DNA of 63,821 bases, filler included, from Chrysochromulina tobinii (Eukaryota), in assembly GCA_001275005.1 (NCBI GenBank). It is 6 parts of 6 records of this genome, joined end to end, with 100 filler letters (N's around TTAATTAATTAA, not from the genome) between each part and the next. Parts side by side here need not be neighbours in the genome. Positions count along the whole stretch, not along the records: positions 1 to 9,698 come from JWZX01000559.1; positions 9,799 to 17,987 come from JWZX01000561.1; positions 18,088 to 29,279 come from JWZX01000562.1; positions 29,380 to 49,367 come from JWZX01000563.1; 2 more parts are not named here. The stretch is one strand, 5' to 3'. Under the pieces are notes generated by a model. That model saw only the letters and a program-made list of their open reading frames with translations, was not told the DNA's origin and ran no database searches. Shown here in pieces: positions 3,238 through 48,078 of this stretch (position 1 is the first letter of the stretch; the number at the start of each line of letters is the position of its first letter). The translations under genes were made by a program, and so were the position numbers.

Positions 3238-6200
3238 ATGCGGGCCGCCTCGGTTCTCACCATGCTCCTGATCCAGCACGCACACGGAGCTGCCGTGACG
3301 ACGCCGCGAGTCCGTCGCGTTCCCACCTTGACCCGTGCAGAGGTCGCTCCGCCGCTCACCTCGAAGCGTGCGCCCGAGATCGTGCTCGCGACACTCGACG
3401 GAGGGCAGTTCAATAGCACCGCCTCGCTGAGCCGACCGGTGCTCTTCAACGTGTACGATCCAACGTCCGGCTTCAGCACGTGCCTCTGGCAGTGCAACCA
3501 GTCCATCGACGAGCTCATCAAACGCGCGGGGCCCAAGGGCTCGCCACTCGGGACTGCGCCGAGCTCCAACTTGGTCTTCTTGTCTTACGACGCAGCGGCC
3601 ACCGACGACGTGGCGGCGCTCTCGGCGCTCATCAACGGCCGGCTCGACGCTCTCAACGTCACCGATCCGGCCATGCGTGCCGAGTGGGCTGCCCGGCTAT
3701 TCTTCGCGACCGCGCCGGCGACGGACGCGGCACCGCTCGCTGCGACACTCTCGGCTTGGCCGACGACGACCGACGAGATCGTCCTCTCCAACGGCACGCT
3801 CAACACGACGCTTCCGCGGCTCGACCCACGCTACGATTGGATTGGCTGGGCGTTCGACCCGTCGCAGCTCGGCGGGCCGCTCCCGCTTGCCTACCTGGGC
3901 GATGGGTGTGTCGATCGGGCGCTCAACACGACGCTGCCGAACCTGGCGGGCCTAGTCGCTCTGGTCTTCAACGAGACGTCGTATGGTGCGGGGCACACGC
4001 GACCAGATGCATGCTGATTGCATGCTGATTGCATGCTGATTGCATGCTGATTGCGTCCCTCATCAGGTGCGGGGCACACGACGTGCTCGTACTTTAGGAT
4101 GGTGGAGACGGCCATGGCGACCAACGCGTCCGCCCTCATCGTCGTCGCCTCGCCCGGCCTGCCACCCATCGACATGAACTGTGAAGGTGCGGCACAGTGC
4201 AACAACGTCAACGTCGGCTTGCCTGCGACGATGGTCAGTGCTACTGCCGGTCAGACGTTGTACGACGCGATCAACGCGACGGCGGCGACGGGGTCGGCCG
4301 CCTATGTCACCTTCACGACCGCGGTCTCGCGCGGCAGGAACGCGGGCATCTCGGCCGCCGGAGATTGGATCCAGATTTGGGGAGGGTCGGGGGCAGGCGC
4401 GTCCAGCCCGGCCCTCGACCTCGCTGCTGATTGCATTCCGATTGCATTCCGATTGCATGCTGATTGCATGCTGATTGCATGCTGATTGCATGCTGATTGC
4501 ATGCTGATTGCATGCTGATTGAATGCTGATTGCCTCCCTCATCAGGTGCGACTAGCCCGGCTGGCGGTGTGGACGGCAACCCAGGTGACCCCAGCTGCCT
4601 TCTGTACCCGCGGATGAGTTTCATTGCCTGGGCGGGGCGCTTTGAGATCTATCGGCAAGCGCTCGCCGCCAATGTGGCCGCGCGCCCGGCAGGCTCGATG
4701 TCTCTCACGCTCTTTCGGAACGAAAGCATTCGCCCCTTATTAGGCGACTGCTATGCGTCTCCGCCGTGGGGATGCGGACCGAGCGTACAGCTGCAGGTGC
4801 CGCCGCTGCCCCATCAAGGGAGCCTGCAGCTCGACCTCGCGCTCGGATGCGCGGGCGACACCGACGTGACGTGTGAGCAGTGGGACTACGTGGTGCAGCT
4901 GCGCGCCTGCTGCCTGCCTTCCGGCCTGAGCGCCATCCTGAGCGCTGCTAGTGCGGCTGGCGTCGAAGGTCCGCAGTGCGACGCACAGAGCGGCAGCGAG
5001 ATTGGGCGATGGATCACCTCGTTCTCACGCGGTGTCGGGCGCTGGCACACGGACGTGACGGCGCTCGCACCGGTGCTCACCGGCCGCTGGTGCAACTTCA
5101 CCATGTACACGGTGCCGTGGGAGGGTAACCAGGGATTGATACCGTGGATTGCGACTCTCTCGCTCGTGGTGCTGACGGTGCCGGCTGCGCCGCCGCCGCC
5201 GCCGATGCCGCCAATGCCGCCGATGCTCGCCCTGCCGATACTCGCCCCCGCCACCAGCGCCACCGCCGCCACCGCCCCCGCCACCATCGCCACCGCCCCC
5301 ACCGCCACCATCGCCACCGCTCCCATCGCCTCTACCGCCGTCTTTTCCCCCATCCCCACCGCCACGTCCCTCGCCTCCACGTCCACAGCCGGTGCGACTC
5401 AGGGCACGCCCGTCGTGTATCAGCCGTGGGGCGCCGTGAGCTCAAATCTGGGCGGCATCGAGAGTGTGTTCCAATGGATCTTCTTCAACCAGTCCTACAA
5501 CGCACTCTTCCCGCCCTTTGCCTTCTCCGTGCCCAACGGTAGCAAGGTGCTGCTCATGGCGACGATCACTGGGCATGGGAACGATAACAATGGCTGCGGC
5601 GAGTTCTGCGCGACAGAACATCGCTTCTCGGTCAACGCGCAGCCGGCGCACGTCAAGCGCCAGCTGCTGCCCATCACGGACCCGCAGCTGGGTTGTGCCG
5701 ACGAGGTCGACACGGGCGTGACGCCGAATGAGTACGGCACGTGGCTCTACGGTCGCAACGGCTGGTGCAACGGACGGGAGGTGGTGCCGTGGGTCATCGA
5801 CCTGAGCGACGACATAGGGCTCACAGGTGAGGCGGCGTTGATTGCCCCTGATGGCCTGCCTTGCATGCAAGTGCTCACCACAGCGCTGGGCTCACAGGTG
5901 AGGCGGTCATCACCTACGAGGGCCTCTGGTGCCCCAATGCCAGCTCCTGTGTGCAGCCGAACCCGGGCCCTCCGGACGAGTGGTCACAGGTACGTTGATT
6001 GCCCCTGATGACCTGCCTTGCATGCAAGTGCTCACCACAGCGCTGGCCCTCCGAACGAGTGGTCACAGGCTATGCCGGTCATGATGCTCAGCGTCTACTT
6101 GATCGTGACGCCGCCGGCGGCTCCACCCGCGCCTTCCTCGCCCGCGCTGCCGCTCGCCGTCATCCTCTCGGCGAGCCTCGGTGGTGCTCTTGGGCTTGCT

Positions 6201-6419
6201 CTGCTCACCGCCCTGCTGGCCCTCTACTGGCACCGCACGCGGCGCGCCAAAAAGGCGAGCGCCGCGGGGCCCCGCGAGGCACTGCTACCGGTGGAGGCGC
6301 TTCTGACGGCGCCGGTCGTCGAGGATTATCAGCTTGCCGAGGACGGCCCCGGCGGCCGTGGCTTCCCGGGCCGCAAGGTGTCGCTCGAGCGATTGAGCAG
6401 CTTTGATGAGGTGGACTGA
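3238..6419 (+). CDS. Membrane-anchored PA-domain + peptide-N-glycosidase F-like protein; exons 3238-3985, 4067-4396, 4546-5826, 5898-5989, 6069-6419
   Basis: Signal-peptide-like MRAASVLTMLLIQHAHG. PA-like CSYFRMVETAMATNASALIVV...LPATMVS. PNGase F-like motifs CEQWDY, EIGRWITSFSR, ITGHGNDNNGCGEFC and PNEYGTWLYGRNGWCNG. C-terminal hydrophobic helix. Four introns join the ORF pieces in frame. Confidence 0.85.
3986..4066 (+). other. GT-AG intron (81 nt) with target-site duplication and (CTGATTGCATG)n filler
   Basis: GGTGCGGGGCACACG at 3985-3999 and 4066-4080; ends CTGATTGCGTCCCTCATCAG; splicing gives SYGAGHTTCSYF. Confidence 0.9.
4397..4545 (+). other. GC-AG intron (149 nt) with degenerate target-site duplication and (CTGATTGCATG)n filler
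   Basis: Intron start GCGCGTCCAGCCCGGC versus next exon GTGCGACTAGCCCGGC; ends CTGATTGCCTCCCTCATCAG; splicing gives WGGSGAGATSPAGG. Confidence 0.8.
5827..5897 (+). other. GT-AG intron (71 nt): 52-nt core between 19-nt direct repeats
   Basis: GGGCTCACAGGTGAGGCGG at 5817-5835 and 5888-5906; splicing gives IGLTGEAVITYEG. Confidence 0.9.
5990..6068 (+). other. GT-AG intron (79 nt): the same 52-nt core between 25-nt direct repeats
   Basis: GGCCCTCCGRACGAGTGGTCACAGG at 5966-5990 and 6045-6069; splicing gives PPDEWSQAMPVMML. Confidence 0.9.
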
Positions 6420-6924
6420 CAAGTTTCGAGGGAGCTTGATCTACACGAGATGTGTGCGCAAGTGTGTGGCGTCGGCGACGTGGTGTGTGCGCCGAGTTTT
6501 ACTTGTGTGAAACTCGTCTCGTGAGACGTGAACACACGACGACGACTCCACATACGGCATATGTACACCTCCACACAGAGACCCTGGTGCAGACTCACAC
6601 CCGACCCTGCGATGCCTAATGAAAGTGGTCGTCGTGCGTGTGCCGTGTCCGGGAGTCGTCGTGTCAGACAGGGACACATAGTTAACGTCCTGCAGACAGA
6701 AACCCTGTAGGGGACCCTTCGGTATTGATATTTCGTCATGTCTTTCTGAAACAAAAGACGACAAAAGACAGGTCCAGAATGTGGTAGGATCGTAGGAACA
6801 TCAAAGGCCCATCAAAGGTTAGGACCCATCAAAGTAGGTTAGGACCCTTAACCCATGGAGCACGGTGCCCTGGCTGCGCATCACTGACACTGTCCTACTT
6901 AGTTTCCTTGTATACTACGGCTGA

Positions 6925-7262: not shown

Positions 7263-7434
7263 CACGACGGGCATTCACAATAACCTTCACAAGTTGAGAA
7301 AGGCATTCACGTTTTCCTTCGTGTTCACGCCTAACAATCATGCCGCCCTTCGGCAATACGGCAAAGTTTGCCGAGTGTGGGGGTCTGCTTCCTCTTGCTT
7401 GCTTGCTGCACCCCTCGAGGGTTTGAGGGTGTGA

Positions 7435-9798: not shown

Positions 9799-9839
9799 TA
9801 GGGTTAGGGGTCAAAAGAGGAGAATGAGAGAAGAAATGA

Positions 9840-10023
9840 CCCTAACCCTAACCCTAACCCTAACCCTAACCCTAACCCTAACCCTACCCTAACCCTAACC
9901 CTAACCCTAAGAACCCTAACCCTAACCCTAAGAACCCTAACCCTAACCCTAAGAACCCGAACCCGAACCCGAACCCCGAACCCGAACCCCGAACCCGAAC
10001 CCGAACCCGAACCCGAACCCTAA
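9840..10023 (+). repeat. Telomere-type (CCCTAA)n tract degrading into CCCTAAGAA and CCCGAA variants
   Basis: Read directly; lies about 40 nt from a contig start. Confidence 0.9.
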
Positions 10024-13200: not shown

Positions 13201-16200
13201 AGCTGCACGTCGGTGATCACGCGCGTCTGCGCCACGTGCGCCTCGAAGAACACGGCTTCCAGCAGCATGCGCCTTTCTGCCGTCCCGCCGCCGCCGCGCG
13301 CGAGCATCACGTCCGATGCGATCGCGTACAGCTCGGCGACCGTCTTCGGCATGCCCAGCCCTTTGCGGATCTCGAAGACCGACGCGACCATCGAGAGCAT
13401 CAGCGGGTTGGCCGTGACGCGATGCAGCGTCGTCGGCGCGTCGGGGTCCGTGCTCGTTGGCATGCGCTCGACAAAGGTCATCAGCTGCTTCACGTCCCCC
13501 TCATTCCCCAGTCGCTGCAGCAGCGCCTGCTCTTGCTGCGCCTCGGTCAGCGGCGCCAGGTTCAGCAAGCGGAATCCGGAAAAACGCGCCTCGTCGACGC
13601 CCGCCGGCCGCGAGGTGCAGAGCATCACGTGGCCCTGCGGTGCCAGCACCTCAACAATATGCTGCTCAATCTCGGCGCGCTTGGCTCCGGCCTCGTTGAG
13701 CCCGTCGAGGAGGAGCAGCGCTCGCCGCGCCGTCATCGCCTGGCGCAGCATGCGGTACACCTCGGGCCTCTCAGTGAGGCAGAGGTACGCGTCGATCCAG
13801 TTCCAGTGCGACGCGAACGCGTCTGGTGTATCGCGCAGCCTCGCCTGGAGCAGCTGCACCTTGATCACGATGGGCACCAGCTCGGCGCGATCGAGCGCCA
13901 GGACCACCGCCTGGCTGATGAGCGTCGTCTTGCCCGCTGCGGGCGGCGCGGTGAGCAGCGCGGCTCCCGGGGCAGTGATCGCCTCGCCGAAGCTTCGTGA
14001 AGCGTGTAGCGAGTGCAGCCAATCGCTCAGGCCGCGCACGTCGTGCACGCCAGCCAGATCAGCATCTCCCATCACTTCGATGGCCACGCACTGCTGCAGC
14101 GCATCCAACGGATTGCCGGAGAGCGCATCGAAGATCTGCGAGTGCTGCGTGCGCAGCTCCCGCGTCCACCACCCGCTAAGCGCCTCGTAGGCGGCGTGCG
14201 GCAGCTCGCGCGGCGCGTGGTTCCACGGGTGCAGCGTGAGCGTGGCTGGTGACTCGCCGCTGCCCTCCAAGAAGGTGAGGCCATGGCAGAGGCCGTCGGC
14301 GCCCGCCGTTGCCACGTTGGCATCGCGCCACCCGGCGGCCGTACGCACGGTGAGCGGCTGGCCGGCGGCGTAGCGCCGGGCGCCGAGCGCGCCGCTGGAG
14401 AGCAGCGCCGTAGTGACCATGGCCTCGGGCAGCAGCCTCTCGACCGCCGCACGCACCTTGCCGAGCGCGGCTTGGAGCTGCGTCAGATCGCCGTCACCAA
14501 AGAGCGCCGCCGCTGCGTCTACGCACGACCACACAGCGCCGCCCGCCTCGCGCGCCACGTGCGCGATCGTTTGGCACCGCGCTGCGCCGTCGGCAATCGC
14601 GCGCGCTCGCTCGCCGACGGCGAGCAGCGCCGATTCCGACTCCATCCGCCGAGCATCGTCCGCCAGGCGGCGTGCAGGCTCGACGAGGTTGTGGAGCGCA
14701 CGCGCATCGCCGATAAACGCGGCGTCCCAGCCGGCAGCGGGCGGCCGCCACGGCAGCACCGCCTGGCTGCATCGGTCGTAGGCGAGCTCGAACTCATCGC
14801 CGCCCGTGACGGCGGCAGCGACACGCCCCCCGGTCGCATCGACGACGCCAAAGCGCGGCCCGTCGCCCGCGCCGCTGCCCTGCGAAGAGAGCAGGAGCAG
14901 CGGCTGTCCCTCGGCAAGGCGCAGCGGCGACGCGGCAGGCGCATCGACCTGCGGCAGCGGCTCCGCCGGCGCGGCCGTCGCGCTGTGCGACGCCATCTGA
15001 AGCGCCCCGAGCGTCTTTGTCAGCGCGCCGACGGTGTTGTGCACGTACTCCTTATAGAGGCTGATGACCTTGTGCTTTTCGCCCTTGCTCGTGAACTTAG
15101 ACTTGTTGATCCGCTCAATGTCAGCGGCTACGTCGAGCTCGATCGCCGTAACCTCAACCGCTGTCGCGTCCGCGTCGCTGCTCAGCGCGAAGACCTTGGG
15201 CTGCAGCTGATCGAGGGGCTTCCGGAGCGCGGGGTAGGCCGTCAACCGCTTTATGAGGTCTCGGCTCAACGAGTCTTCCAAGCAGCACCTGCGCGGGAGA
15301 GTGCGGCAGGCGCGTGAGGGTTATGAAAGGGGATCCAATCACATCTGCAGAATAGGACGGGCAGCACTCACCATCCACGAGAAAAGTACGGCGTCTCATT
15401 GTAGAGCGTGTCGAGCCCCTCGCATAGGCCGGGCCATGAACCCGCGTTCTTGGCCGCGACGGCAGACTCGTGCGAGGCAAAGCGCACAATGGGGGGGCTG
15501 TGGCTGAGGTCGCAGCTCTCAATAGTTCCGAACCCGATGAGCGCCGCGCGTACCGCGCTCTCGTCGACGTTTGCGCTCAACATGAACAAGCAGACAACGC
15601 CATCGAACTCGGCTGGCCGGGGTGGGATCTCCTCGATCTGGAGCACGGTCGTTGCGAGGATCGACGCAAACAGCAGATTCAACGCCCCCCCCTTGAGTGC
15701 CATCGAAAAGAACTCATCCTGCTCCGGGGTCCTTGGTCTCTGATACAGCGATCCAAAGTCCCAGAACAAGGCTTCAATTCGAATTGCCATCCCCTTCAGA
15801 GCGCGTCGAAGCGACGCGGATGCGCGAGCCGTCCGGATCTGGATCGCCTGGACTGAGCCAGCCGTAGGTAAGCGCGCCGATGCTCCGATCTCCACGCTCG
15901 ACGAGCGCTGCGGCCTCTTGAGGGTTCAGCAGTGGCGACGGCGAGACCCCGCTCTTTTCAATCTCCTCGAGCGCCTGCCGATTCGGCATCTTGAAGTTGG
16001 CTGGCTGCATCAGTAGCCACTTGACGCATAGCAACCGAACCGCTCCTCTCAGAAGGACTAGTATGATGATTTTGTCGAGCTCTGTGAGCGCCTGACGCAG
16101 CTTTGGCGGCAGCGGTGTACCTGGAGCTGCCTCCGGCACGTCAAGGCCGAGACTCACGAGCTTCCTCTTGTGTTGTTCGCCCACATCGTCGAGAAACACC

Positions 16201-18087: not shown

Positions 18088-20100
18088 CCCCCCGCGCCTT
18101 CTCCGCACATGCCCTCCGACGGCAGTCCCCCCGTCGATGGCATCTCGTCGACTCTCCCAAATATGGGTGGCAGCGACTCCACGGGCTCGTCTTGGCTCAC
18201 GTGGACCCAGGTGCTCAAGGCGACGCTCGTCTTGATTGCGATCTGATTGCGATCTGATTGCGATCTGATTGCGACTGGATTGCGATCTGAGCGCGTCTGA
18301 TTGCGTCAGAGTGCGTCCCTCTCCCCTCTTGATTGCATGCATCATCAGCCTGAGGGCGTCCCTCTCCCCTCTTGATTGCGCCCCTCCTCATCTTTGATTG
18401 CGTCCCTCATCACCTCTGATTGCGCCCCTCATCACGTGTGCATGCGTCCCTCATCACCTCTGATTGCGTCCCTCATCACGTGTGCATGCGTCCCTCCACA
18501 GAGTCGCGTCCAGCTGGGGCAGCACGCTGTCCCGGCATGGATGCTCACCCTCGGCGGCTTCGTGCTGCTCCTCATCGCGCTGTGCGTGCTTCTCGTGTGC
18601 TGCGGCTCGCCCAAGCGACGCAAGCTCACCATCCTAATGTGGTCACACCCGAATCCGGCCATGGGGCCCTTGTACATGCCCGACGAGATGCGCTGGGAGT
18701 TTGCCTTGGACATCGGGCTCGAGGCCCCCCCCTCGTTCTGCCGGGGCCTCGCGCTCCTCTGCTGCAGCAGCTGCAGCTGCAGCTGCTGCTGCTGCTGCTG
18801 CTTCCGAGGCGCGTGCGCGGTAGGGCGGCGCGCCGAGTCGGGCGTGGCCAGAGGCTCTCACGCCGGTAGAGGCGCCAAGATGGGCACTCGAGGCGCCAAG
18901 ATGGGCACTCGACGAGCGGCCGATAACGGCGGCGGCGGCAGTGGCGGCGGCAGTGGCGGTGGCAGTGGCGGTGGCAACTGTAGGGCCGGCACCGGCCGTG
19001 TCGCCCGCGACGGCGCCCGCGGAGGCGGCCGCGACGGTCGACCATGCGCGTCGCAGATCGTCGACTCGGCCGCCATCACCCTCACCGTCACCACCGCCGC
19101 CGTCTGCTCAGCACAGTCCACAGCGGCACAGGACACAGGCTACGACGCGCGCGGGCGCTTCAATCCACTTCGCCCGTCGAGGCTGCTCGTGCATTCAAAC
19201 CCAGCCATCCGTTGGTTCTATCAGCCGCCCGACGCGCCCTGCCTTCCGACGCGCGCGGCATGCCCACCACGGCGCGCGCCGTGCCCTCCGACGCGCGCGC
19301 CGCCCGAGGCCTATCACGCCGTCGACGCCGCCATTCGCCGTGCCGCCGCCCCTGGTGCCACGTGGTACCAGGACAAGGACGTCACCTGGTGCCACGGTTG
19401 CGACAAGGACGTGCCTTCAGTGGCGGCCGCGGCCGTGACTTTCGGACGTTCCAAGGACGTGACTTTCGGACGTTACAAGGACGTGACTTCTGTGGCGGCC
19501 GCGGCCGCCTCGTGCACGCACGCGCGCAAGTCGAGCAGACGACCTGGGACGAGTAGGTCCGCGTCGTCCCGGGCGCCGAAGCGTCACCCGTCGCCCGTCG
19601 CCCTTGAGGGTGAGATTGAGGGGGAGATTGTGGGGGAGATCTCGCTGCACGCGGGCGCCGTGGCGGGCGCTCCAACGCGGCGAAGCGCGTCGGGCGCGCG
19701 CCGTGCCCACCACGGCGCGCACCGTGCCCACCCCGGCGCGCACCCGGCACCTCGGGACACGACAGCGAGGCGGCCTGTGGAACGAAGCCCGACCTGTGGG
19801 GAACGAAGCCCGACCTGTGGGAACACGGCCTGTGGGGAACGAAGCCCGACCAAGCCGCCTGCCCTCGTTCGCATCCACCAGGAGCAGCAGGCCGCTGCTC
19901 AGCGCCGCTGTGAGGCCAACGCCGCCGCCGCTGTCTCCGCTGCCCGGGACGGCGTCTGCTCGGATCCAAACGGCCACGTGGTCCTCGCCCGGGACGGCGT
20001 CTGCTCGGAGCCCAGCCGCGGAGCTCACGACGACGATCTCCACAGGGGAGATCGAGCCGATCTCAGCAGGGGAGATCGAGCCGCCGCCGCCGTCTCCTCT

Positions 20101-20134
<34 letters not shown>

Positions 20135-22776
20135 GCCCGCAGGGGTACGGCGCGGGCGGAAGCGTGCCGCCGCGGCACGACGAGTCGGATGGGTTTCGTC
20201 ACGACCAGTCGGATGGGTTTCGTCACGACGAGTCGAATGGGTTTCGTCACGACGAGTCGAATGGGATTCGTCACGACGAGTCGGGAGCGGCGGTTGGATG
20301 GGGTTCGTCAGCCGTTCTCGAGACGCTCGAGGGCTCCGACTCTCCCAAATATGGGTCGAATGGCTTCGTCAAGAACGGTCGTTCCACTGGTCGTCACGCG
20401 ACGTTCCATCCGCCACCGCCCCTTGCGCCTCTACCGCACTTCACCGCTCCTCAGCACCTTGGCGCCGCCGGCGACGGCGGCGGCGGCGGCGGCGGCAGCA
20501 TGATCGGTGGCGGGAGCGAAGGCAGCTCCCGCGAGCGCCGTCCTGGTCACCACCATCACCACCATCACCACCATCGGCACCACGAACACCGCGAGTCACG
20601 TCTCACACGTGAGGAGAAGGAGGCGCTCGCCTCCCTCCAGTGGACCCTCCACCGCGCCGCCTCGGGTTTCGTCATGGCGGAGCTCGAGCGCAATCTCGGC
20701 CATAATCTCGGCCATAATCTCGGCCATAATCTCGGCACGTCGGCCTCGATTCCCTTCTCTGGAGTCGACCTCGATGACGGCCGCTCGTCGCCACGTCATC
20801 GCTTCGATGATGACGGCCGCCATCGCTTCGATGGTGATGGCCGTTCGTCGCCGCGCTCCGAGAGCGCCTTCTCGTGCGCCTTCTCGGAAGGTTCCGCCTC
20901 CGCCTACTCGTACACCGGACGCTCCTTTACGGGCACCGACTCGTCGTACTCTCGCGCTGGCCTCATCAGCTCACCGCACGGCTCCGTCTCCGCGTACTCC
21001 GAGTCGCAGCGCTCGAACACGACGAACACGACGGCCACCACGGTGAGGGAGGCCCTCGCCTCCCTGAGTGCCTCCCTGAGTGCCTCTCTGATCACCTCTC
21101 TGAGTGCATGCTGATTGCCTCCCTCATCAGGCTCGCCTCCCTGATCACCTCCCTGAGTGCATGCTGATTGCCTCCCTCATCAGGTGAGGGAGGCCCTCGC
21201 CTCGCTCCGGCAGCTCGCCCAGCAACTCCCTCCCGGATTCGCCGAGTTCGGACTCATCGAGCAGCCGTTACGTCGCTCCGCCGCCGTCCCCGGCGTGAGC
21301 GGTGGCGCCACCCCCACCGGCGTCTCCGGCGTGAGCGGTGGCGCCACCCCCATCGGCGTGGGCGGCGGCGCCACCTTAGGCGGCACGCCATCGGGCGTCT
21401 CGCGCGGCGCGTCCCCTGCCCTCTCATTCACGCCGAGCCTCAGTGGGTCCGCCTCCCCCCCCGTCCTCATGCCCAGTACGGCGCGACGGTTCGACGCATC
21501 GCCGCCCTCAGAGGGCGCCGTCGCGGGCGCCGCCGCGGGCGCCGCCGCGAGCGCCACCGCATCCCCCTTCGCGTCGGGAACGGGCGCCGTCCCGGGCGCC
21601 GCGCCTCCGAGGGGCTCCCCCGAAGGCGCCGTCGTGGGCACTGGCGCCGCCCCGGGCGCCGCGCCTCCGAGGGGCTCCCCCGAAGGCGCCGTCGTGGGCA
21701 CTGGCGCCGTCCCGGGCGCCGCGCCTCCGAGGGGCTCCCCCGAAGGCGCCGTCGTGGGCGCGGGTGCCGTCGCGGGCGTCGTACCGGGCGCCGCTGCCCT
21801 CGCGCCGACGCCGAGCCCGGGCGCCGTGAAGGACGAGGCCGACGGTGCTCAACACGGCGCTCTGAGCGCGCGATACCACTCACCACCGGTGCTGCCCAAG
21901 ACGGCGCTGCCCAAGACGGCGCCGCATGGCGTCGACGGCGGTTACGGCGGCAGCGGCGGCAGCGGCGGCGGCGGTGGCTTCGGCGGCTTCGGCGGCAGCG
22001 GCGTCGATGGGGAGGCGACCGCCGCTGACGCCGCCGCGGGCGCCACCGCGGGCATCGCCGCGGGCATTGCCGGCGAGTCTGCCAGTAGGTCGGCTGGCTC
22101 GCAGTGCAGCGCTCGGTACAGCGCTCGGTGCAAGATGGCCCGAGCAGCGGCGGCTGCGAAGCTCTCCGAAGAAGCCGCCGCCGAGCTGGGCGCGAGCGCC
22201 GCACCGAGCGCCGGCGCCCCTACCTCTACACGGCCCGTGACCGAGGTACGCTCGCGCCCGCCACGCGGCCCTGCGGCACAGGTCGCGGCTGTCCAGTCCG
22301 CAGAGCTCGATGCGGCGCAGATCCTCTCGACCTTTCCCGCGCTCGCCGGCGCGGCTGCCGAGTTGGGCGTCGAGATGGGCGTCGCACCGCCGATGTTCAG
22401 CACGAAGCACAGCGCCCACAACAGCGCCCACAACAGCGCCCACAACAGCGCCCACAACAGCGCCCACAAGTCGGCGAGCGCCGAGCGGCTGCGGACCAGG
22501 CAAGCGCTCACAACAGCGCCCGCTCCAGGGGGCGAGATTCAGGGCGAGATTCAGGGCGAGATCCGCCGAGCGCTGTTTCCGGACCAGTCCTCTTACGCGG
22601 ACAAGGCCTCTTATGCGGACAAGTCCTCTTATGCGGACAAGTCCTCTCGCGAGGGGACCAAGGTGGAGCCAGCACTGGATCCAGATGCAGATGGCCTTTC
22701 GCCGAGCATCGGCCGCTCGCCGGCATGGGACACGCCGTGCACGCAGCAGGAACAGGACATCGAGCTGGAGGTGTGA
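18088..22776 (+). CDS. Hypothetical low-complexity single-pass membrane protein, 5'-partial; introns 18211 (or GC at 18220)-18501 and 21043-21183
   Basis: ORFs 18376..21114 and 21157..22776 are joined by a duplication-flanked intron. Hydrophobic WMLTLGGFVLLLIALCVLLVCC; many short in-frame tandem repeats. Confidence 0.6.
18211..18501 (+). other. Intron filled with CTGATTGCG(AT) and CGTCCCTCATCAC repeats
   Basis: CAG|GTGCTC...CCCTCCACAG|AGT joins WLTWTQ to SRVQLG in phase 0; the donor could instead be GC at 18220. Confidence 0.7.
21043..21183 (+). other. GT-AG intron (141 nt) with 20-nt target-site duplication and two tandem acceptor modules
   Basis: GTGAGGGAGGCCCTCGCCTC starts both the intron and the next exon; CTGATTGCCTCCCTCATCAG ends at 21130 and at 21183. 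Confidence 0.85.
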
Positions 22777-23460
22777 AGGACATCGAGCTGGAGGTGTGAA
22801 AGACGCGCGATGTTGCAGAGGCGGGGCAGTGAGAGCTGGTGGCCCCTTTCGTCCAGCGCCATCCTCATTCAGCCGGTACATGTTCATCGCATGTACACGG
22901 GGAGGTAAGCGAGAACTTTTCGTTTATCCGTTCCGTGCGCGCGTCGTGTACAGCGATCCAGCGATGCAACATGGGTACATGCATCGTTGGCAGTTATGAG
23001 ATGAGGTCCACGTTTTTTACAACTTATGATCTTACTACCGAGTACTACTTGCTACTGCCTCGATGCTAATTGTACCGCCCCGAGCGTTCGCCCGCGCGGC
23101 CGCGCGCCCGCCCCCGTTCTCGATCCGCACCGGCCGGGCCCGCCCCCCGCGCCCGGTCTGCATCCGCTCGGATGTAAAGTGTTCACGGCCGGGAGGAACA
23201 CCCTCTCACCGCACACTGACACCTCGCGCGGGTTCGCGGTGCGGTTGCGACCCGACGTCGGGTAGTAGGCGCGCATAAGGCGCGCACTACCAAAGTGCAC
23301 CTTCGAGACGTCTGTGGGCGGGATGGCGGCGGGCGCGCCCGGCGGGCGGCGGCGAGCCCGGCTCGCCGTCCACAAACGCGGTCGCCCCGCGACCCGATCA
23401 TCATTCGCATGGACTTTTTAGCGCCAAGCTTTCGTGCTGCTCGTCTGTTCGCGCACGGGC

Positions 23461-32650: not shown

Positions 32651-32998
32651 CTTTTGAGGGAAAAGGATCGCATGTTCGATGTTGACCATGAGAGCATGAG
32701 TGGGTGGTGAAGAAGACCGCTAACGCTCACCGAAGCATGCAGCCCACGCTTCCCAACATCACCGTGAGAGCCCCGGCCCTCCCAGAGTGTGTACGCGCAG
32801 CAATCGCCGGCGCGCGACCTACATGGTGCACATGACGCTGCCCCACTGATGGGGAAAGTCGATCTTCATTCTGAGTTTCAAACTTATGAAAGTACCGGTC
32901 GAGTTCCGGGCAATGGCGTGGACGTGCTTGCAGACTCTGAGGTGAAACCAGACTGCAACTAAGCAGAACGTGAGCGCGAGCGCGCAGCCGCTGTGCGT

Positions 32999-35900
32999 AT
33001 GTCGTCACCGACACGGGCGCGAGGCAACTCGCAATTGGGCGCCATTCTGCGCAAGAACCTGTTGCTCAAGCGCCGTGCGCCGAAAACGACGTGCGCTGAG
33101 GTCCTATCGCCGCCCCTCTTCCTATCCATCTTGGTGCTCGGCTACTTCCTCTCGGAGACCGAGGTATACGGCGTGGGTATCTATGCTTCGACAGAGGTCA
33201 ACGTGGCCAGTCTCATCTCCACGCTCGGCCCACTCGTCAGCGGAAGTGCGCGGGTCGCTGTGCCCACGGTGGCAGGGGTGGCTGGCACCCAAAGCGAATG
33301 TGAGGTGACGAGCTTAAACACCAACTTGACACAGTGCGGGATCGAAAATACCGAGAACGTTGACCTGTTTGGCCTGCGCGGCTCGCTCACGTCCATCATA
33401 AACGGGCCGCTGCCCGTGCTCAACATTGACACATTCCTCTCAATAGGGCTTAGCGTGCGCAACGCGCTCGGCTCGAAGAACCTAAAGCGCCTCAACGAAG
33501 CTGAGGAGTACTTGCAGCTCTTTGGCAACATCCTCACTCCGGGGAACATCCACATCTCGCCCGATACCAACCGCACACGCGACTTTGTCGCACGATCGCG
33601 CGCGGCTCACCCGACACTGAACTCGATCGACATGATCCTCCATCCCGATGAGCGGACGGCACTGCAAACTATTTCCGAGGGCACGTCAGGGCAGCGCACG
33701 TGGGCGCTGCTCGCGTTCCTCGAGCTCGACCCAGCCAACCTGAGCGTCTCCATCCGGCTCAACTACACCACCGTACCAAATACGAACCGTCTCAACAACT
33801 GGGTCGCCCGAGGGCTCGACACCGACTATCAGCAGTACATTACTTCAGGCTTCCTGACGCTGCAAGCGCTCGTGGACGAGTACGCCTTCGATGTGGCAGC
33901 GCGGGAGGGCTACGCGATTCCCTACGCGCCGCCCACCTCGTACGCCTTCGCCGCGCCCATGCCCACCGCCGCGTACAGCCAGAACGAATTCTATCTCGCG
34001 GTGAGCTTCATGCTCTCTCTGGTGCTGACCATGTGCCAGCTCTTCCCCGTGGCGCTGCTCACGAAGGCAGTCGTGGTCGAAAAGGAGCAGCGACTCAAGC
34101 AGACGATGCGCATCATGGGGCTGCGCGACCCGATTTTGTACGCCTCATGGTGGATCACCGCCTTTTCTCAGTTCTTGATCATCGCCCTCCTGTCGACATT
34201 CGTCATCAAGCTTTTCGTCGTTAAGACGTCCTTCGTGATCGTCTTCGTCTTCGTCGGCTTCTTCTGCCTGGGCGCGATCTCGTTTGCCTTCCTGCTCTCC
34301 GTATTCTTCTCGAATGCCGTCCTCTCAGCCGTCGTCGGGCCGATCGCCTTCTTCGGCTGCCTCCTCCCCCGCTACCTGTTCTTCGGCTCCAACCGTTACG
34401 AGCGCACAACTGCGAAGTTATGGGCCTCACTCTCGCTGCCGACGGCCTTCGCCTTTGGCGCGGACATCCTCGCCGAGTACGAGCTGGCCGAGATCGGCAT
34501 CAATCGCAGCAACTGGGCGCAGGATGACTACAGCTTCCTAACCTCGCTCGGTATGATGCTCGTCGACACATTCCTCTACATGGTGCTCGGCTTATACCTT
34601 GAACGCGTGCTGCCCTCGCGCTACGGCACTCGCGAGCACCCGCTCTTCTTCGTGCGCCCGTCGTGGTGGGCGTGCGCCACGCCCGGCCCGTCGCGGCTGC
34701 GCGCGCCACTGCCGACCTCCCCCGCCTTCGAGCCGCCATCTGAGGCTCTCCGCAACTCGGACTCGATTGAGATCGTCGGGCTGGGCAAGGTGTATGGGGA
34801 TTGGACCTCACTCAAAAAGGTCGCCGTCTCGGGACTCGACCTCTCGTTCTACTCGGGCCAAATCACGTGCTTGCTCGGCCACAACGGCGCGGGCAAGACC
34901 ACCACCCTCTCAGTGCTCACCGGGCTGTACCCGCCCACCACGGGGGACTGCTACGTCTTCGGCTACTCGATCACGCGAGCGCGCGCCGTTGTGTACAACA
35001 TGCTGGGCATCTGCCCCCAGCACGACGTGCTCTGGCCTGTTCTGACGGTGCAAGAGCACCTCGAGCTGTATGCGACCCTCAAGGGAGTGCCCTCGAAGCA
35101 CGCACGCGTCGCCGCACGTGCGATGGCTGCCGAGGTGGGTATCCCTGAGAAGGCACATGTGCGCGCGCATGCCCTGAGCGGCGGGATGAAGCGAAAGCTC
35201 TCTGTTGGCTGTGCACTCATCGGCGGCTCGAAGGCAGTGCTGCTCGATGAGCCTTCGTCAGGCATGGATCCCTCCTCGCGCCGTTCAATGTGGGAGTTGC
35301 TCAAGCGCTCCAAGCCCGGGCGAGTGCTCGTGCTCACTACCCATTACATGGACGAGGCGGACCTTCTCGCTGATCGTATTGCCGTCATGAACCTGGGCAA
35401 GCTGCAGTGCTGTGGCTCGTCGCTCTTTCTCAAGTCGCGCTTTGGCCTTGGGTACACCCTCTCGATGGTGGTCGCCGATGGCAAGGCGTCCGACGCGATC
35501 ACGCGAGCCGTGCACGCGACGCTCCGCCGGCACGTGCCCGAGGCGCAAGTGCTCTCGGCCGCGGGCGACGAGCTCTCGTTCCGTCTGCCCTTTTCGGACT
35601 CTCCGCGCTTCGCCGCCTTGCTGGCTGAGCTCGAGCGATCTCGCGCGGCGCTCGGGATCGGCTCTTACGGCATGTCGGTCACTTCGATGGAGGAGGTCTT
35701 CCTTCGGCTCGCGCAGGGCGACGAGGCTCTTGCAATGGTGTCGGCCAGGAAGGCCATGACGACGACGACGACGGACACGTACACGATGTTAAAGCAGGAC
35801 CTGGACGCACTCGAGGTCCCGCCCGTGCTCGGTACGGCGATCAGGGGAGCCGCTAAAAGCCCCGAGGGCAAGTACTGGCGCAAGTTGCGGAGCTACAAGA

Positions 35901-38900
35901 CGCACGTGGTGCTGCTGCGCCGCTGGCGACGCTCGAAGAGCTTCAGGCCAACGGTCAGGCGGCTGCAAGGTACCGCCTTCCCTGGCCCGGACGACGAAAT
36001 GGCGCGGATGCTTCCCGAAGGCGTCGAGTTCACTTCGGTGGAGAAGCTCACCGTCGGGAGCGAAACGTCCACGCCGCCTCCCTCGCCCCCGTCGCATGTG
36101 GTGGCGCCGCAGCCGGCCGAGATTGATATCTCGCCCCCCCCGAAGGGCGGGATTGATATCTCGCCCCCCCCCGAAGGGCGCACAGAGCCGCCGCGCCCGC
36201 CCCTCGAGTTCCAGCCTCAATCTGCTCAGCCATTTGAGAGGTTCGCCGAAGGGATCGTCGACGCGCCAAGCCATCCAGAACGCCGACGGGCCCACAGGCC
36301 TTGTGACAGACGACGAGCTGCACGCAGCCCCGTCAGTGCCTCCGATGCGCAAGCAGCTCTTCGTGATGCTGCTCAAGCGGTGGACCTGCCTCAAGCGCAA
36401 CAAGAAGGGCTTCTTCACGCAGCAGATCCTTCCTGTGGGGCTCGTCGCCGTGATCTTGCTCATCCTCACTTTGGAAGACCCGCGCGTCGGCCCGCCACTC
36501 CGCATGCATGCATCCATCTACCGGCGCACGCGCTGGGGGGGCGAGCAGCCGGAGCCGCCCACGCTCCACGTGGCCAACCGCGCGCGCGACACTGAGCTCT
36601 TTCGGCACTACTCGACGTACTCCCTCGACTGGCAAGAAATTGGCGCGGCCGATTCGTACAACCTGAGCCAGTACCTGCTCGATACGTACAACGATCACCA
36701 GAGTCGCGCCACTCGCCTCGGCGGCGCGTTCGCGGGCGATATGGTCCACTTCAACTTGTACTTTGGAGGCGGCGGGTTGGAGGGCGTGCTCCTGGGCAAC
36801 GGCAACTCGTCGGCCGTAGATCCTGAGGACCTCGCTGCCCTTTCGGGCGGCGTCGCGGTCGCGTTGCTCACGTGCTCGCGCTGGCAGCCGGGCGGTGTCG
36901 GTTTGGTCGGTTGGACCCCGGGCATCGTCGCGCAAGCGCTCCTTCCCAGCCTCAACCTGAGCGCCTCCACTGAAGCACTCGTGATGTCGCTCGTGCGGGG
37001 CGCCAACGGCACCCTCGCTGGCCTCAACGTGTCAGCCTCGGGGCTCGCTGGCCTGGCGGCGGGTGCGCTTGCAGGCTCCATCTACCTGTCCAATAGCAGC
37101 GTATCGAATAGCAGCAGTGGCTTCAACAGCAGCGTCGTCGTGGGCACGGCTCCGACCAATCTGATCACCAATCTGATCACGGACGCGCTCGCTACGGTGA
37201 TCGGCCCCGCTGTCAGCGCCGGCCTCGCCCTCGGCGCTGCGGTCGTCAACAACGCCTCGGTCGCTGCCGTCGGTGCGGGCGTCGGGACTGGGCCAGCGGG
37301 AGATCTGATCTGCGCGGGGCTCGGCCAGGTCAGTGTGCTTGACGCCGAACTGAGCGCTGCAGGCGTCCCTGTCGCCGCCCGCGCCGACGGCTTTGCGACC
37401 GCGAATCCAGCCGACTCCCTCGGCAGCGCACTGGTCAATGGGCAGCCTTTGCGTGAGGCGGCGCTTGAGCTGCTCGAGGACAGCGCTGGGCGCGCCGCGA
37501 CTGTGGGGGTCGGCTTCATCTTCGACTCGATCACGTACGACCCGTGGCTGCCGCAGCTGCGCGCCGCGCTCAACCCCATCACGCCCCTACTAGTCGCTCT
37601 CTCATGCAGCACCTACCCGTGCTCGCTAGTTCGGCCAGCCAACGAGCAGGCGCTCACACTCGCACTGCGCGCGGCGCTCGTGGTGGTGGGCGGCTGGACT
37701 TCAGCCGAGGCAAGTAGCCTGATCACCGTGGATCGCATACGACGCTCGCTCCCGTACATCCGCGTCTTCAACAACCTCGTCACAGAGCTCGAGGGGGTTC
37801 GTCGGGGCAACGAGGTGCGACTGCACTCGATCGAGAACTTCCCGCTCCCCCTCGCCGACCTCGCCGAGCTTGTCGCGCTGATCGCCGACGTCAACCCGAC
37901 GGGCCCGTTCACGGCGCTCCGCCCCGTCCTCGACGGCTGGGCTGCCGACGGCGCTCCCCTCACCATCCCGACCACCGCAGAGGCCGCGGCCGGCGTGGCG
38001 GCCGACGCGGCGGGCCAGAACTCCACATTAGGCGACCGTGAACAGCTCAACCTGCGCCAGCTCACGCTTCGACTCGGGATGGTCTGGCTTGGCCCTGCGA
38101 GCCTCAAGGTCAACCACTTGGAGCTGACCGCCGTTGGCACCTTTCAGGCTTCTTCCTCGCTATCCTCGCCGCCGTCGCCACCGCCGCCGCCGCCGCCCGG
38201 CCCAATGCGCCTGACCATCGGCCACCTGGAGCTCTCGGACAGCGTGATCGCCTATGTGAATCTGAGCTATGCGGACACTCGCACCTCGGGCTCCGCCGCG
38301 GGCTTCACGTACGACGCGCGTGTCGTGCCGAGCATCTACACGGCACCCTGGCTCAATGTCTCTCTTCCAGTGCAGCTCACGGTGCTGCACAACACCTCGT
38401 CGGCGCACGCGATGGCCGTCTTCCTCGGCGAGGCGAGCCAGTCGGCGTGGTACGAGGCACACGCAGCGATGCACCCGCCGCCACCGCCGCATTTGGGTGT
38501 GGTTGGCGACGCCCGTGCGCCGATCGGCCCAGTCAAGTACGAGGTCTTCAATGCGCCGCTGCCGCTCACGCGCCGCGCAGCCCTTGAGGTATGGCGGACC
38601 CTGATTGCGACTGATTGCGACTGATTGCGACTGATTGCGACTGATTGCGACTGATTGCGACTGATTGCGACTGATCTGATTGCGACTGATTGCGACTGAT
38701 TGCACCTCCGTCCGCCCTTGAAGTACGGCGGACCCTGGCCTTGCTCTCAAGCCAGTGCATGCGAGCGCTCACCGCGGCGCCCTCTCCCCACAGGTACGGC
38801 TGATCCTGGCCTTGCTCTCGTCGATCTTCATGCTCGTGCCCTTTTGTTACATCCCGGCATCGGCGGCCGTCTTCGTCGTGATGGAGCGCATCTCCAAGTC

Positions 38901-42045: not shown

Positions 42046-43833
42046 TCAGAGGGCGACGTCGGAGGAGTAGGTGCCCGCAGTCAGCTTCTTGGGCTCACCC
42101 GACGCATTGGTAATCTTGACGGAGCCCTCGATGACCACGCCGTCCTCCATCTCGATGTTCGCGCCCTCAACGGTGAGCTTCTTGCACTTGATCAGGGAGG
42201 GCGGCGCGCCGGGGACGAGTTTCTTCAGCTGGTCGACGAACTTGTATGCGTCGTCGAGCTTGATCGTCGGCGGCACGCCCTTGCACTCCTCCCTGAGCAC
42301 CATGCGCAGGTCGGTGGTGACCTCATACGCGTCCGACATGAGCGCGAGCATGTCGGCTGTCGTCTTGACCGGTGCGAAGCGCGTGCGCGGGATAAGGATC
42401 GCGGCCGCCGTCGGGAAGGCTGAGATGGCCGAACCCATCGCCGTCTCGAGCTGCAGCACCTTGGTGGACGCCTTGTCGCGCGGGTCGACCGTCTTGCCGT
42501 TCTTGATGACCGGCAGAGGGAGCGCGCCGTCGAATTTGGTGAACGCCGCCTTAAGTTCCTCGAGGTTGACCCACAGGTTGTTCGTGTTGAAGAACTTGTA
42601 CTTGCCCACGTTTTGGAACTCCTTTTCGTCCGCGTCGGGGCACTGCGCAGCCTCGCGCAGCAGCAGGCCACCGCCCTTGGCCTTGGCCAGGTGGCCGCCC
42701 TTCTTATCCGCGTCGGTGCGCTCGGCGCACTCCATCGCAAAGGGCGAGCCGGACGCTGCGAACCAGGTGAGGAGCTTGAGATCCATCGTAGCGCCTAGGT
42801 TGTCCGAGTTGGAGACGAACATATACTTGTATCCCTTGGCGAGCAGCGCATCGAGCGTGCCCGTGCCCACCATCGCCGGGTACAGGTCGCCGTGGCCGGG
42901 CGGGCACCACTCGCACTCTGGCTTTGCGGGCCACGAGGCGGGCGTCAGGTCGTCCTTGGTGATCTTGGGCGCCTTGTTCTGCTGGAACTCGAGGGGCAGA
43001 CCCTCGGACTGGAGCGTCGGGTACTTGGCCAGGTACTCGAGCGTGTCCGCCGAGGTGGCGAACGAGTTCATGAGCATGAACGCGAGCGGCTTCTTGTACA
43101 CGTCGCGCATCTGCTCGACTTGGAGGGCAATGAAGTCTAGGAAGGTCTTGCCCTGCTTCAGATCAAGTAGCGATTTGGCCTTCTCAAGGCCCATGCCCGT
43201 GCCCAGACCGCCGTTGAGCTTCACCATGACGCAGCTCTCGAGCAGCGCGGGGTTCTCGGCGGTGAGCGCCGCGTAGTCAGGAAGGCTATCCACCGGCTCG
43301 ATGCTCGACTCAGGGATCATAAGGTCGGCGCCCGACGTGAGCACCTTGAAGTTGTACTTGAAGGCGTTTTGGGCGGCGCTGTTCATGCCGTCGGCCGTCA
43401 TCTTCTGCTCATACGAGGGCCAGAGCGCTGTGAACTTCTCGTTCTCGGGGGTTTCCATCTTCGAAGCTTTGAGGAGGTAGTTGGCGATGAAGGTGAAGGG
43501 ATCAGCGGGACGCTCCTTGAGTGTCGCAGCAACGACCTGCGGTAGGGTTTAGGAGGGCGCGCGTGAAGGTCGAGGCATCGCGTGGCGGTGGCAGTCGGCG
43601 CCGTGACCGGAGCTGGCCGCAAGGGAGGCACCCTCTCACCTCAGCGATCTTCTTCTCGAGATCGAAACGCTGCAGATATGCGATGTTCGACTCAGCCTGC
43701 AGAGCGCGACGGAAGAGGGCGGTGAGCGGAGAAAAGCGATGCCGGCAGCAGCAGTAGGGCGCTAAGTCTGGCGTCTATCGGCTGAAGTGAGCCAACGGTC
43801 CGCGACAGCGCATCGGGCGTCAAGTCGTACCAT
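42046..43833 (-). CDS. UGP: UTP-glucose-1-phosphate uridylyltransferase with N-terminal RIIa/Dpy-30-like extension; exons 43833-43831, 43696-43640, 43536-42046
   Basis: KLNGGLGTGMGLEKAKS, LMNSF, WCPPGHGDLY, VSNSDNLGA, FFNTNNLW, QLETAMG, RFAPVK. Upstream GT-AG introns add MAESNIAYLQRFDLEKKIAEVVAATLKERPADPFTFIANYLLKASK in frame. Confidence 0.95.
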
Positions 43834-44033: not shown

Positions 44034-44911
44034 ATGCCCGGCGTGCCCACCTCGGAAGAGGTGACGGCCTACCTTGCCGCGCACAAGCTCGAACCTGTAA
44101 TCGAGGATGCCGTAAACGACGCCGTGCTGAAGCAGGTCAAGGTGAGATGGCCACAAGCGCAGCGGCCACGCAGGCCAGCCTCGTGAAACATTCCTGCTCC
44201 GCACGGAGAGTACCGATTCTTCGCTTTGACGCCCTATCGCCGTCGCTCTGCCTCTCTCTCGCGCGCAGAACCCGTTCTGGCACATTGCACAGATCCTTCT
44301 CAAGAAGAGCGAGGAGGTGGGCGAGGCCAAGAGTGGCACTCGGGTCTCCCTCGACGGCGCCGTGAAGGAGAGTCCCGTGAAGAGGCCTGCGTTCGCGCCC
44401 GAGGCGGTCGTCATCGGCGGCGGCCGTGGACAGGAGATTGACGAGGCAGGGCTGACGCACACCTTCACCAAGAGCGAGGGCACGCTTACCGACGTCCTGC
44501 AGGCGAAGCTCAAGTCGTTTTTCGACAAGATGGATTTGGACAGCAACGGCGAGGTTTCCAAGGAGGAGGCTGAAAAGTTCTGGGGCAAGAACTTTGCCAA
44601 ATTGAATGCGCAGTCGATGTTCAACGGTGTGTCTCGCGCGCGACCCACGCTGCCTCTGCCCGCGTCGCGTCGCGCCGCCCATCAGAGCGCGCGCCGCGCT
44701 CTCCATCTGAGCTCTCGCAACGACGCCTCTGCACCCCGGCTTCGCAGAGGTCGACGAGGACGGAAACGGCACCATCACGTGGGTCGAGTTCCTCGACTTT
44801 TGGAAGAATGTGGCCGCCAATGGGTACTCGCAGGAGGACCTCGAGGAGGAGGTGCAGATGATGATGGAGGGCGGCTCTTGGGTCGACTTTGACGACGGCC
44901 GTACGACGTAA
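44034..44911 (+). CDS. Two-EF-hand calcium-binding protein with N-terminal RIIa/Dpy-30-like domain; exons 44034-44141, 44269-44626, 44748-44911
   Basis: MPGVPTSEEVTAYLAAHKLEPVIEDAVNDAVLKQVK|NPFWHIAQILL; EF loops DLDSNGEVSKEE and DEDGNGTITWVE; canonical GT-AG introns keep the frame. Confidence 0.85.
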
Positions 44912-46657: not shown

Positions 46658-46831
46658 GATGTGTTATAGAATCATGATGAGCGAAAAGGTCAGCTAAGCA
46701 AAATAAGGTCAGCTAACCGTTCGTGGGGATGGCGCCTCGGCGCGGATGGTGCGTTGGACATGCGAGAATCATGAAGAGCCGAACCGTTCCACGAGCGCCA
46801 CGATACGGGCCCGATCGTCAAGCGTCAAGCG

Positions 46832-48078
46832 TCAAGCCCCTCCGCTCACGTCGACGACCACGCGGCCCGCCGTCTCACCCTTTAGGATGCGCGGTGCGTA
46901 GCTGATGACGTGCTCGAGCCCGATCGTCTCGGCGGTGACCAGCGCGAGAGCCTGCGGCGAGAGCGACTCAGCGAGCAACTCCCAAACAATGCGCCGCTCG
47001 CGCTGCCACTCGACCCAGCGCTCCCTTTCCATCGGGTACCCTTCCAAGTCCCATGGCAGGGTCGAATCGACGCCAAGCAGGCGCACGCCGCGGAGGATGA
47101 AGGGGTAGACTGTGGAGAGCAGCTCACCTGATGAGGGAGGCAATCGAGATGCACTCAGAGATGAAGGGGTAGACTGTGGAGAGCTGGAAGGAGACTGTAA
47201 AGGAGGATGAAGGGGTAGACTGTGGAGAGCAGCTCACCTCCCGAGGCAACGCCCGTGCTCGCGATGGCGCCTCGGTAGGCCGTCTGCGCGATGGCCGCGG
47301 CGAGCGTGCTGCCGCCCACCGCGTCGATCACACCCGCCCACCGCTGCTTTGAGAGCGGTTTCGTGTCCGGTTCTAGCCGGCCGATCACTTCCGCCGCGCC
47401 GAGGGCGCGCAAGTGGGTCTCGAGCGCAGCCTGTCGGCCCGTCGAGGCGATGACCTCGAAGCCACGCGCGGCGAGCAGTGCGATGGCCACCTGGCCCAGC
47501 CCGCCCGCGGCGCCCGTCACAAGCACCGGCCCGTGGCTAGGCTTCACCTCGCCAGCGCACTCGAGGTGGTGAACGCACATAGCTGCTGTGACGCCGGCGG
47601 TGCCGATGGCCATGGTCTCTGCGAGCTCGAAACGGCCCATTGGAGGTGCGATGAGCCACTCGGCTCGGCACGTTGCACGCTCCGAGTAGCCGCCGTCAAA
47701 GTGCTGCCCCGCCTTGTTGCCTGTCAGCACCACACGGTCGCCCGCCTTCCACAATGTCGACGAGGAGTGCACCACGTGCCCGGCATAGTCGATGCCTGCG
47801 ACGATCGGCCACTGCGGCACGACGCCCTTTTGGCCGAGCAGGATCATGCCGTCCTTGAAATTGAGGTCCGAGTGCGTCACGGCCACCTCGACGTCTGCCT
47901 TCGGGTCCTGGCGGGGAAGATCGCGGACAGAGTCAAAGTTGAGGAGCTGCGCGGTCGGCCCGTCGCCCGCCTCTTTGGCCGACCGTGCAACCACGGCGCG
48001 GAAGTGGCGATGGGCCGACGTGCGGCCGAGGCCGTGGATCAGCGGCCGCTGTCGGCGCACCACTAATCGGCGCAACAT
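46832..48078 (-). CDS. acuI: Acrylyl-CoA reductase AcuI/YhdH-type MDR oxidoreductase with mitochondrial-like presequence; intron 47128-47237
   Basis: SDLNFKDG, GIDYAG, GGYSE, MAIGTAGVTAAMCV, VLVTGAAGGLG, WAGVIDAVGGSTLA, TVYPFILRGVRLLGVDS, GRVVVDV; Arg-rich N-terminus MLRRLVVRRQR. Confidence 0.9.
47128..47237 (-). other. GT-AG intron (110 nt) with a 38-nt perfect target-site duplication
   Basis: 47092-47129 is identical to 47202-47239; the minus-strand end is GATTGCCTCCCTCATCAG. Confidence 0.92.

Follow-up and report, generated by a model that had tools for sequence, protein, structure and literature searches.

We analysed a 64-kb window of the Chrysochromulina tobinii genome (the whole stretch of DNA under study, six pieces joined by N linkers), in which young introns are built from a few shared sequence modules plus a 15-40-nt copy of the host exon. 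An earlier note on this DNA had described nine introns in five genes with shared modules; all nine were found where it had placed them, and their excision opens frames of 925 amino acids (aa) for i1-i4, 1393 aa for i5 and i6, 391 aa for i7, 1720 aa for i8 and 378 aa for i9. The spliced products over i9 and i7 match the C. tobinii proteins KOO44200.1 (378 aa) and KOO44202.1 (391 aa), respectively, in length and in junction sequence. The predicted product of the gene that hosts i1-i4 (3172-6419) is a membrane-anchored protein with peptide-N-glycosidase F domains, whose anchor would be lost on retention of i4. What we say of the genome as a whole rests on the window, on a second gene (L001, introns a to d), on four RNA runs and on protein clusters. 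The introns, with one site that is intron-free in the window, are as follows (types A and B are defined below the list).

3986-4066, plus strand: intron i1, GT-AG, 81 nt, type A; donor from a 15-nt exon duplication, 11-nt units and the CCCTCATCAG acceptor module
4397-4545, plus strand: intron i2, GC-AG, 149 nt, type A; duplication decayed to 16/19, about ten 11-nt units
5486-5491, plus strand: empty site, intron-free in the window; 2 of the 14 listed records reaching it switch to a peptide that fits a CTGATTGC-type module
5827-5897, plus strand: intron i3, 71 nt, type B module; a 19-nt duplication (5817-5835 and 5888-5906) gives both splice sites
5990-6068, plus strand: intron i4, 79 nt, type B module that carries the donor; a 25-nt duplication (5966-5990 and 6045-6069) gives the acceptor; polymorphic
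18211-18501, plus strand: intron i5, predicted, 291 nt; several modules stacked, end duplication not significant
21043-21183, plus strand: intron i6, predicted, 141 nt, type A; perfect 21-nt duplication, 12-nt units, and an internal 53-nt repeat that results in two acceptor modules
25286-25410, plus strand: intron i7, 125 nt, in a nucleotide-sugar transporter gene; an older member with a decayed exon copy and the CCCTCATCAG module
38589-38793, plus strand: intron i8, predicted, 205 nt, in an ABCA gene; two nested events, a copy of the exon junction inside (38714-38748), 10-nt units and a CTCCCCACAG acceptor
47128-47237, minus strand: intron i9, 110 nt, type A, in an acrylyl-CoA reductase-like gene; 38-nt duplication (47092-47129 and 47202-47239), three allelic states

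Type A comprises i1, i2, i6, i9, the first event in i8, and introns a and d of L001. In these introns a copy of the downstream exon stands at the start, its (A)G|GT or G|GC serves as the donor, and 0-10 units of 10-12 nt lead to a fixed acceptor end; such a combination of fixed 3′-end, variable 5′-end and duplication of variable length is that expected of a target-primed retroposon without long terminal repeats (non-LTR). Type B comprises i3, i4 and intron c of L001, in which a non-repetitive module of 52-55 nt precedes a copy of the upstream exon, and the CACAG of this copy is the acceptor. The CACAG to the left of the type B module is target sequence, 2/3 copies of the module start exactly at the donor and directly after CAG, and their tails, CGCT(GG), are short and variable. 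The CCCTCATCAG acceptor module indeed ends the five introns for which a common end had been reported (i1, i2, i6, i7 and i9). Tandem units, previously taken as the usual interior, were found at 10-12 nt in i1, i2, i5, i6, i7 and i8, and i3, i4 and i9 have none; there are at least five unit types, some of them mixed within one intron. Of the 13 introns read in the window, nine carry modules. Module introns end in ATCAG (5) or CACAG (4), and all four ordinary introns (15289-15371, 43537-43639, 44142-44268 and 44627-44747) end in CGCAG. In agreement with the earlier note, the sense-oriented module introns with their long, variable duplications show no terminal inverted repeats, and so differ from introners derived from miniature inverted-repeat transposable elements (MITEs): the best inverted matches near intron ends are 5-7 nt, the same as in controls, and matches of 10-12 nt arise only through internal palindromes.

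Duplications were counted across both splice sites. Copies of the adjacent exon were 15/15 in i1, 16/19 in i2, 19/19 in i3, 24/25 in i4, 21/21 in i6 and 38/38 in i9. A 32/35 copy of the exon junction lies inside i8, where it was left behind by a second event, and in i7 there is a copy of the downstream exon, decayed to 16/18, which was not counted in the note; neither i5 nor intron b of L001 has a significant exon copy. Thus the claim of seven exon duplications holds for the number of introns that carry a copy (7/9), but not for the supply of the donor in every case, since the donor of i4 comes from the module and its duplication gives the acceptor, and the copy in i8 is internal. The four ordinary introns, in UGPase, EF-hand (two) and NLR genes, have duplications of 1-4 nt, in line with the statement that they lack this architecture, and the excess over ordinary introns is borne out (7/9 versus 0/4, Fisher p=0.021; with the four L001 introns 10/13 versus 0/4, p=0.015). 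When compared with 1000 random coding stretches, i1, i4, i6, i7, i8 and i9 scored above all of them. By the same test i3 (39/1000), i2 (120/1000) and i5 (91/1000) were not above chance, for i3 because the test scores each half separately and for i2 because the duplication is decayed. Moreover, modules recur in unrelated genes, each copy with a variable duplication of its own, and one type B module has three duplication lengths (19, 25 and 29 nt); over all introns the range is 15-40 nt, with variation within a single module.

Splicing was followed with contigs from four RNA runs of three studies, placed on 3200-6500. As the note had asked to see, contigs skip i1 (runs X14 and X16), i2 (X14) and i3 (X14, X15 and X18), and every listed genomic read-through that extends to i1, i2 or i3 contains the intron (10/10, 15/15 and 13/13, respectively). 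Because the introns are present in every one of these read-throughs, the skips are most likely splicing. For i4 the evidence is mixed, and a contig of X18 that jumps 79 nt reflects either splicing or an empty allele. Intron i7 is spliced in KOO44202.1 and in a C. parva model, i9 is spliced in KOO44200.1, and the proteins P0328 and P0334 run across the four L001 introns, each time with the predicted junction. Runs X20 and X21 contained next to no module words.

Presence and absence were read from protein clusters, in which metagenomic gene calls run into introns, apparently blind to splicing, and thereby report alleles; at most 15 members are listed per cluster, starting with those that have names, and several of them may represent a single strain. 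A stretch of 60 nt in i4 is identical (60/60) to intron c of the unlinked gene L001, which has its own 29-nt duplication. A 96.8% identical locus (L003), which keeps i3 and extends ∼1 kb beyond the stop codon, lacks i4 exactly and holds a single copy of the duplicated sequence, and another locus (L007) has i4; among the 13 listed records that reach the site (15 of 28 being listed), 11 read into i4 and 2 read past it (P0292 and P0294). For i9 there are three states, i.e. absent, 64 nt and 110 nt (the window has the last), and among 15 listed of 40 records 6 carry the short allele, 5 the long allele, 3 are contiguous and 1 is annotated as spliced. Cutting a 46-nt local repeat from i9 of the window gives exactly the peptide of the short allele. 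Two i9-free records come from a 96% identical sister lineage (377-aa open reading frames (ORFs), on contigs of up to 28,980 and 30,840 bp), and the third, P0132, belongs to the lineage of the window and lies on 8,957 bp. In L001, 13/15 listed records read into intron a, and five records of another cluster, two of the same lineage and three of the sister, are without intron a but with the next intron; intron c is absent in five records that keep the next intron and present in one. Conversely, at the site near 5490 the records P0287 and P0288 (2 of 14 reaching it) break off into a module-like peptide, judged from the read-through peptide rather than from DNA. Thus the proposed comparison of orthologous sites did give empty sites at i4, i9 and introns a and c of L001, and a window-empty site that is filled elsewhere, and on the basis of these five sites, which segregate in natural populations, gain or loss of these introns is ongoing.

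For i9 and introns a and c of L001, absence in the sister lineage together with perfect copies favours gain over loss. The process is also old, because the position of i7 holds an intron in a 92% identical sister lineage as well, and 9/10 listed records reach and read into i7. An age gradient is seen, in which polymorphic introns have near-perfect copies, and i2, i7 and intron b of L001 are fixed and decayed. Among 15 listed records the read-through of i2 is 105-133 aa long, partly owing to start choice and partly to unit number; since the unit number varies between alleles, slippage after insertion explains unit copy number. Beside these cases, intron d of L001 (∼1775-1850) seems to share its donor with sister records that have an exon copy of ∼40 nt and other filler, which appears to be parallel gain or remodelling.

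The nearest neighbours of modules are mostly in other genes (10-11/14), and similarity that would indicate templating within the same gene was not above chance (p=0.18-0.38). In all four RNA runs module positions attract many contigs from other loci, and in X14 the summed contig depth is ∼400-1500 at module positions versus ∼35 on exons. The nine introns are all sense and genic, with none in 14,188 non-genic bases (46,495 bases are genic; a satellite, in which there are two weak word pairs, was set apart). By AGGT sites this bias has p=0.011, before allowing for the many exon insertions expected to be lost through selection. A metagenome scan with a 45-nt type B pattern gave 7 loci, at only two genes; viral scans gave 0, 0 and 9 loci, and the nine, which have neither duplication nor acceptor, are chance matches. 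A scan of prokaryote genomes gave one type A acceptor module (L008, 1530-1561), at the very end of a contig of a bacterial metagenome-assembled genome; a pattern search of that genome added none, and the module is probably a chimeric join. The 145-bp satellite (49683-52380) has the words TGATTGC, CTGAGTGCC and GCTCACC in common with intron modules. As a source of modules it was rejected, since of seven modules only i5 (0/200 shuffles) and, weakly, i1 (9/200) align above chance, through a shared heptamer. In non-genic DNA, 53827-53955 has the same layout without an intron module, i.e. a 49-nt direct duplication with 31 nt of filler; 14 nt of the filler also occur 545 bp away, at 54437, and 12 nt in the satellite. 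With repeat arrays excluded, a repeat scan gave about two non-genic duplication-plus-filler candidates (6930 and 53827).

The reading that we prefer, and about whose truth we are evenly divided, is that a transcribed gene suffers a staggered break, into which 30-70 nt of an existing intron are copied, probably via RNA. A nicked DNA end would anneal over a few bases to RNA that contains an intron, and would prime copying, the second junction would close through short homology, and filling in of the staggered gap would create the duplication. For type A, the 3′-end of an intron, with branch words and acceptor, would be copied, and the duplicated (A)G|GT would turn into the donor; in type B the piece would begin at the donor, and the duplicated sequence ending in CACAG would turn into the acceptor. 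Only cleanly spliced events would survive in exons. Later events are seen as well: slippage adds units, some sites have taken a second hit, and duplications decay; recombination between the two copies would remove the intron exactly. A reverse transcriptase of a retroelement acting in trans, or a repair polymerase, are candidate enzymes. An RNA template is favoured because placement is genic and sense-only, the acceptor end of type A is fixed and the start of type B is donor-exact. In addition, the type B targets end in CACAG like the module itself (3/3, versus 0/4 ordinary acceptors), which fits homology with the junction of the parent. Of the two routes named in the earlier note, target-primed copying is leading, if unproven, and telomerase-like copying fares badly, as discussed below.

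Several observations weigh against this reading. A contig of X14 that skips i3 runs into i4 as far as 6033, and i4 may be poorly spliced; i5, i6 and i8 are introns predicted from the opening of the frame. Within the species the empty alleles are not polarisable (three haplotypes with 10, 6 and 2 private changes and no outgroup). By length alone the genic bias has p=0.09, with nine cases and hand-drawn gene spans. A poly(A) or simple-repeat tail was not seen in the 13 introns read, and register matches at the left junction are weak (∼5, 3 and 2 nt in 3/6 cases and none in the other 3; the 8-nt match scored for i6 includes an internal repeat). The search for a small template RNA and a reverse transcriptase that the note had suggested came out negative in the window, with no Rfam match and, by Pfam on 23 spare ORFs, no reverse transcriptase. 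Finally, both the long i9 allele and the duplication at 53827 contain filler that is scrambled locally, which looks like DNA repair.

DNA-templated repair is the strongest rival explanation, although we think it rather unlikely to account for these introns. A broken or stalled end would switch by microhomology to the DNA of another intron, copy 30-70 nt and return upstream, by polymerase-theta end joining or microhomology-mediated template switching, and selection would keep spliceable products. The scrambled filler of the long i9 allele, the nested events in i6 and i8, and the non-genic 49-nt duplication at 53827 with its matches to DNA 545 bp away (14 nt) and to the satellite (12 nt) are in its favour, and PMC3296678, in the part accessible to us, counts intron gain through repair, with direct repeats on either side, among the mechanisms. 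However, random templates should leave many non-intron scars in non-genic DNA, where only about two candidates were seen; identical donor-exact copies in unlinked genes would be unexplained, and local templating within the same gene is unsupported (p=0.18-0.38). That the modules, or at least those of type B, travel on Replitron- or Helitron-like HUH elements of the non-autonomous kind seems improbable to us. According to the accessible text of PMC10288648, Replitron-1 inserts after RG with a fuzzy right end from the flank of its parent and with variable duplications, and one Replitron locus is reported in C. tobinii; the two donor-exact type B copies likewise sit after CAG with a short variable tail. 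However, the type B module, with only a 12-nt palindrome, folds no better than shuffles (192/200 fold as well; z=+1.6), the left end of type A is not fixed, a DNA element would be expected outside genes too, and in the accessible text duplications were found only in the Replitrons of C. reinhardtii.

More improbable still is that the introns are old, with minisatellites spread among them by gene conversion and with empty alleles representing losses by recombination between repeats. The intron i7 common to the sister lineage would fit, as would the sister intron at the donor of L001 d with its longer exon copy and other filler, by which remodelling occurs, and direct repeats do favour exact deletion. 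But perfect copies of 21-40 nt cannot last long without selection, i9 and introns a and c of L001 are absent in the sister lineage, ordinary introns are without duplication, and the strain of the window is without an intron that others have. As for telomerase-like reiterative copying of one small template RNA, we hold it very improbable: 10-12-nt units in i1, i2, i5, i6, i7 and i8 and one fixed acceptor end would suit it, but there are at least five unit types and mixed arrays, the copy number changes between alleles, and type B, the youngest module, is non-repetitive. Plain tandem duplication first with a module added later was rejected, since the length of most duplications is not divisible by three and the duplicated sequence is single at empty sites.

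Some further features of the window were recorded. The host gene of i5 and i6 (18088-22800) is a low-complexity frame of 1393 aa, rich in perfect tandem duplications of 12-60 nt, which suggests a genome prone to tandem duplication. At 36121-36180 a 30/31-nt tandem duplication with unequal C runs lies at a frame shift of the ABCA gene (ORFs 32993-36595 and 36096-38624), and is either an assembly slip or an unrecognised intron. Exact look-up of the ORFs adjoining i6 and i8 in the protein collection gave no entry. The second piece starts with a telomere-type CCCTAA array with variants (9799-10023).

The current answer to the long-standing question of where new introns come from, on which these data bear, leans on transposons found by end-to-end similarity, and ongoing intron gain of the present class may be undercounted. 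We suggest, tentatively and as something that falls clearly short of an even call, that introns beget introns without a transposon of their own: pieces of intron RNA would prime into staggered breaks at splice-site-like sequences of transcribed genes, each new intron templating the next. Introns in freshwater Chrysochromulina would stem mainly from this process, as may the 10-11-bp intron repeats in other haptophytes, and it would have gone unseen as introner screens filter it out. The long duplication dates each event and allows exact loss, so that rates of gain and loss can be measured in an alga that is in culture and has a public genome. Such intron repeats are reportedly known from Read et al. 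2013, who are said to have found 10-11-bp tandem repeats enriched in Emiliania huxleyi introns, with no link to exon duplications or intron gain; unit size and intronic location would be the same as here, also in a haptophyte.

In the openly accessible literature searched, no description of the present layout was found; subscription papers may bear on its novelty. Reverse-splicing models and fungal introner-like elements (ILEs) involve a whole intron without duplication, unlike the long duplications and partial copies here. The Daphnia study is said to have found repair-linked gains with one-off filler, whereas the filler here comes in families and is often part of an intron. The papers cited below were accessible in part, and our statements refer to those parts. 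Among the routes listed in PMC3296678 are double-strand-break repair (Daphnia), tandem duplication and 'intron transposition'; direct repeats at the new intron, and an existing intron as source, are points of likeness. The genome paper of C. tobin (PMC4580454) mentions introns once and not this layout in its accessible text, that of PMC8557442 has nothing on haptophytes or on duplications for a Penelope-like partner, and PMC2784329 and PMC3152781 gave nothing on intron repeats. Replitron-1 and Replitron-N1 of Chlamydomonas reinhardtii resemble type B only, in orientation-specific insertion after RG, a fuzzy right end and a variable duplication, but they are 0.9-3.6 kb long with terminal direct repeats and a hairpin and, in the accessible text, are not reported to make introns (PMC10288648), whereas in our modules, of 30-70 nt, no stable hairpin was found.

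The closest systems are introners. Two large screens do not list this route of intron gain for the species: in the accessible parts, C. tobinii appears only in the genome list of PMC9860276, with no family, and has 0 introner families in PMC12130899. Their filters would reject the layout, since the rules, i.e. similarity within ten intronic bases of both ends (PMC9860276) and removal of low-complexity families, exclude it. Of the classified families in PMC12130899 ∼5% are non-LTR and ∼72% are unclassified. Compared with the non-LTR-derived introners there, we saw no tail and no homology to a known retroelement, and one five-member E. huxleyi family is noted, similarly to our case, with '10bp terminal direct repeats'. 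Introners that take one of their splice sites from the duplication (Micromonas, Aureococcus, Polarella classes 4-6, 8, 10 and 14, and a family of a marine Chrysochromulina metagenome-assembled genome; PMC9860276, bioRxiv 10.1101/2020.10.14.339549) are likewise multi-copy in unrelated genes, carry one site and co-opt the other, leave the mRNA unchanged and have a strong genic bias. However, their duplications are 3-9 nt and fixed per class (3-8 nt per class in bioRxiv 10.1101/2020.10.14.339549; 4 bp in the marine Chrysochromulina family, PMC9860276), versus 15-40 nt and variable within one module here, and our introns have no terminal inverted repeats, a minisatellite interior and one locus-specific end. 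Because similar introns occur at unrelated loci, splicing restores the frame and orthologous sites are empty, the process works like an introner in the broad sense, but it is not of the MITE type.

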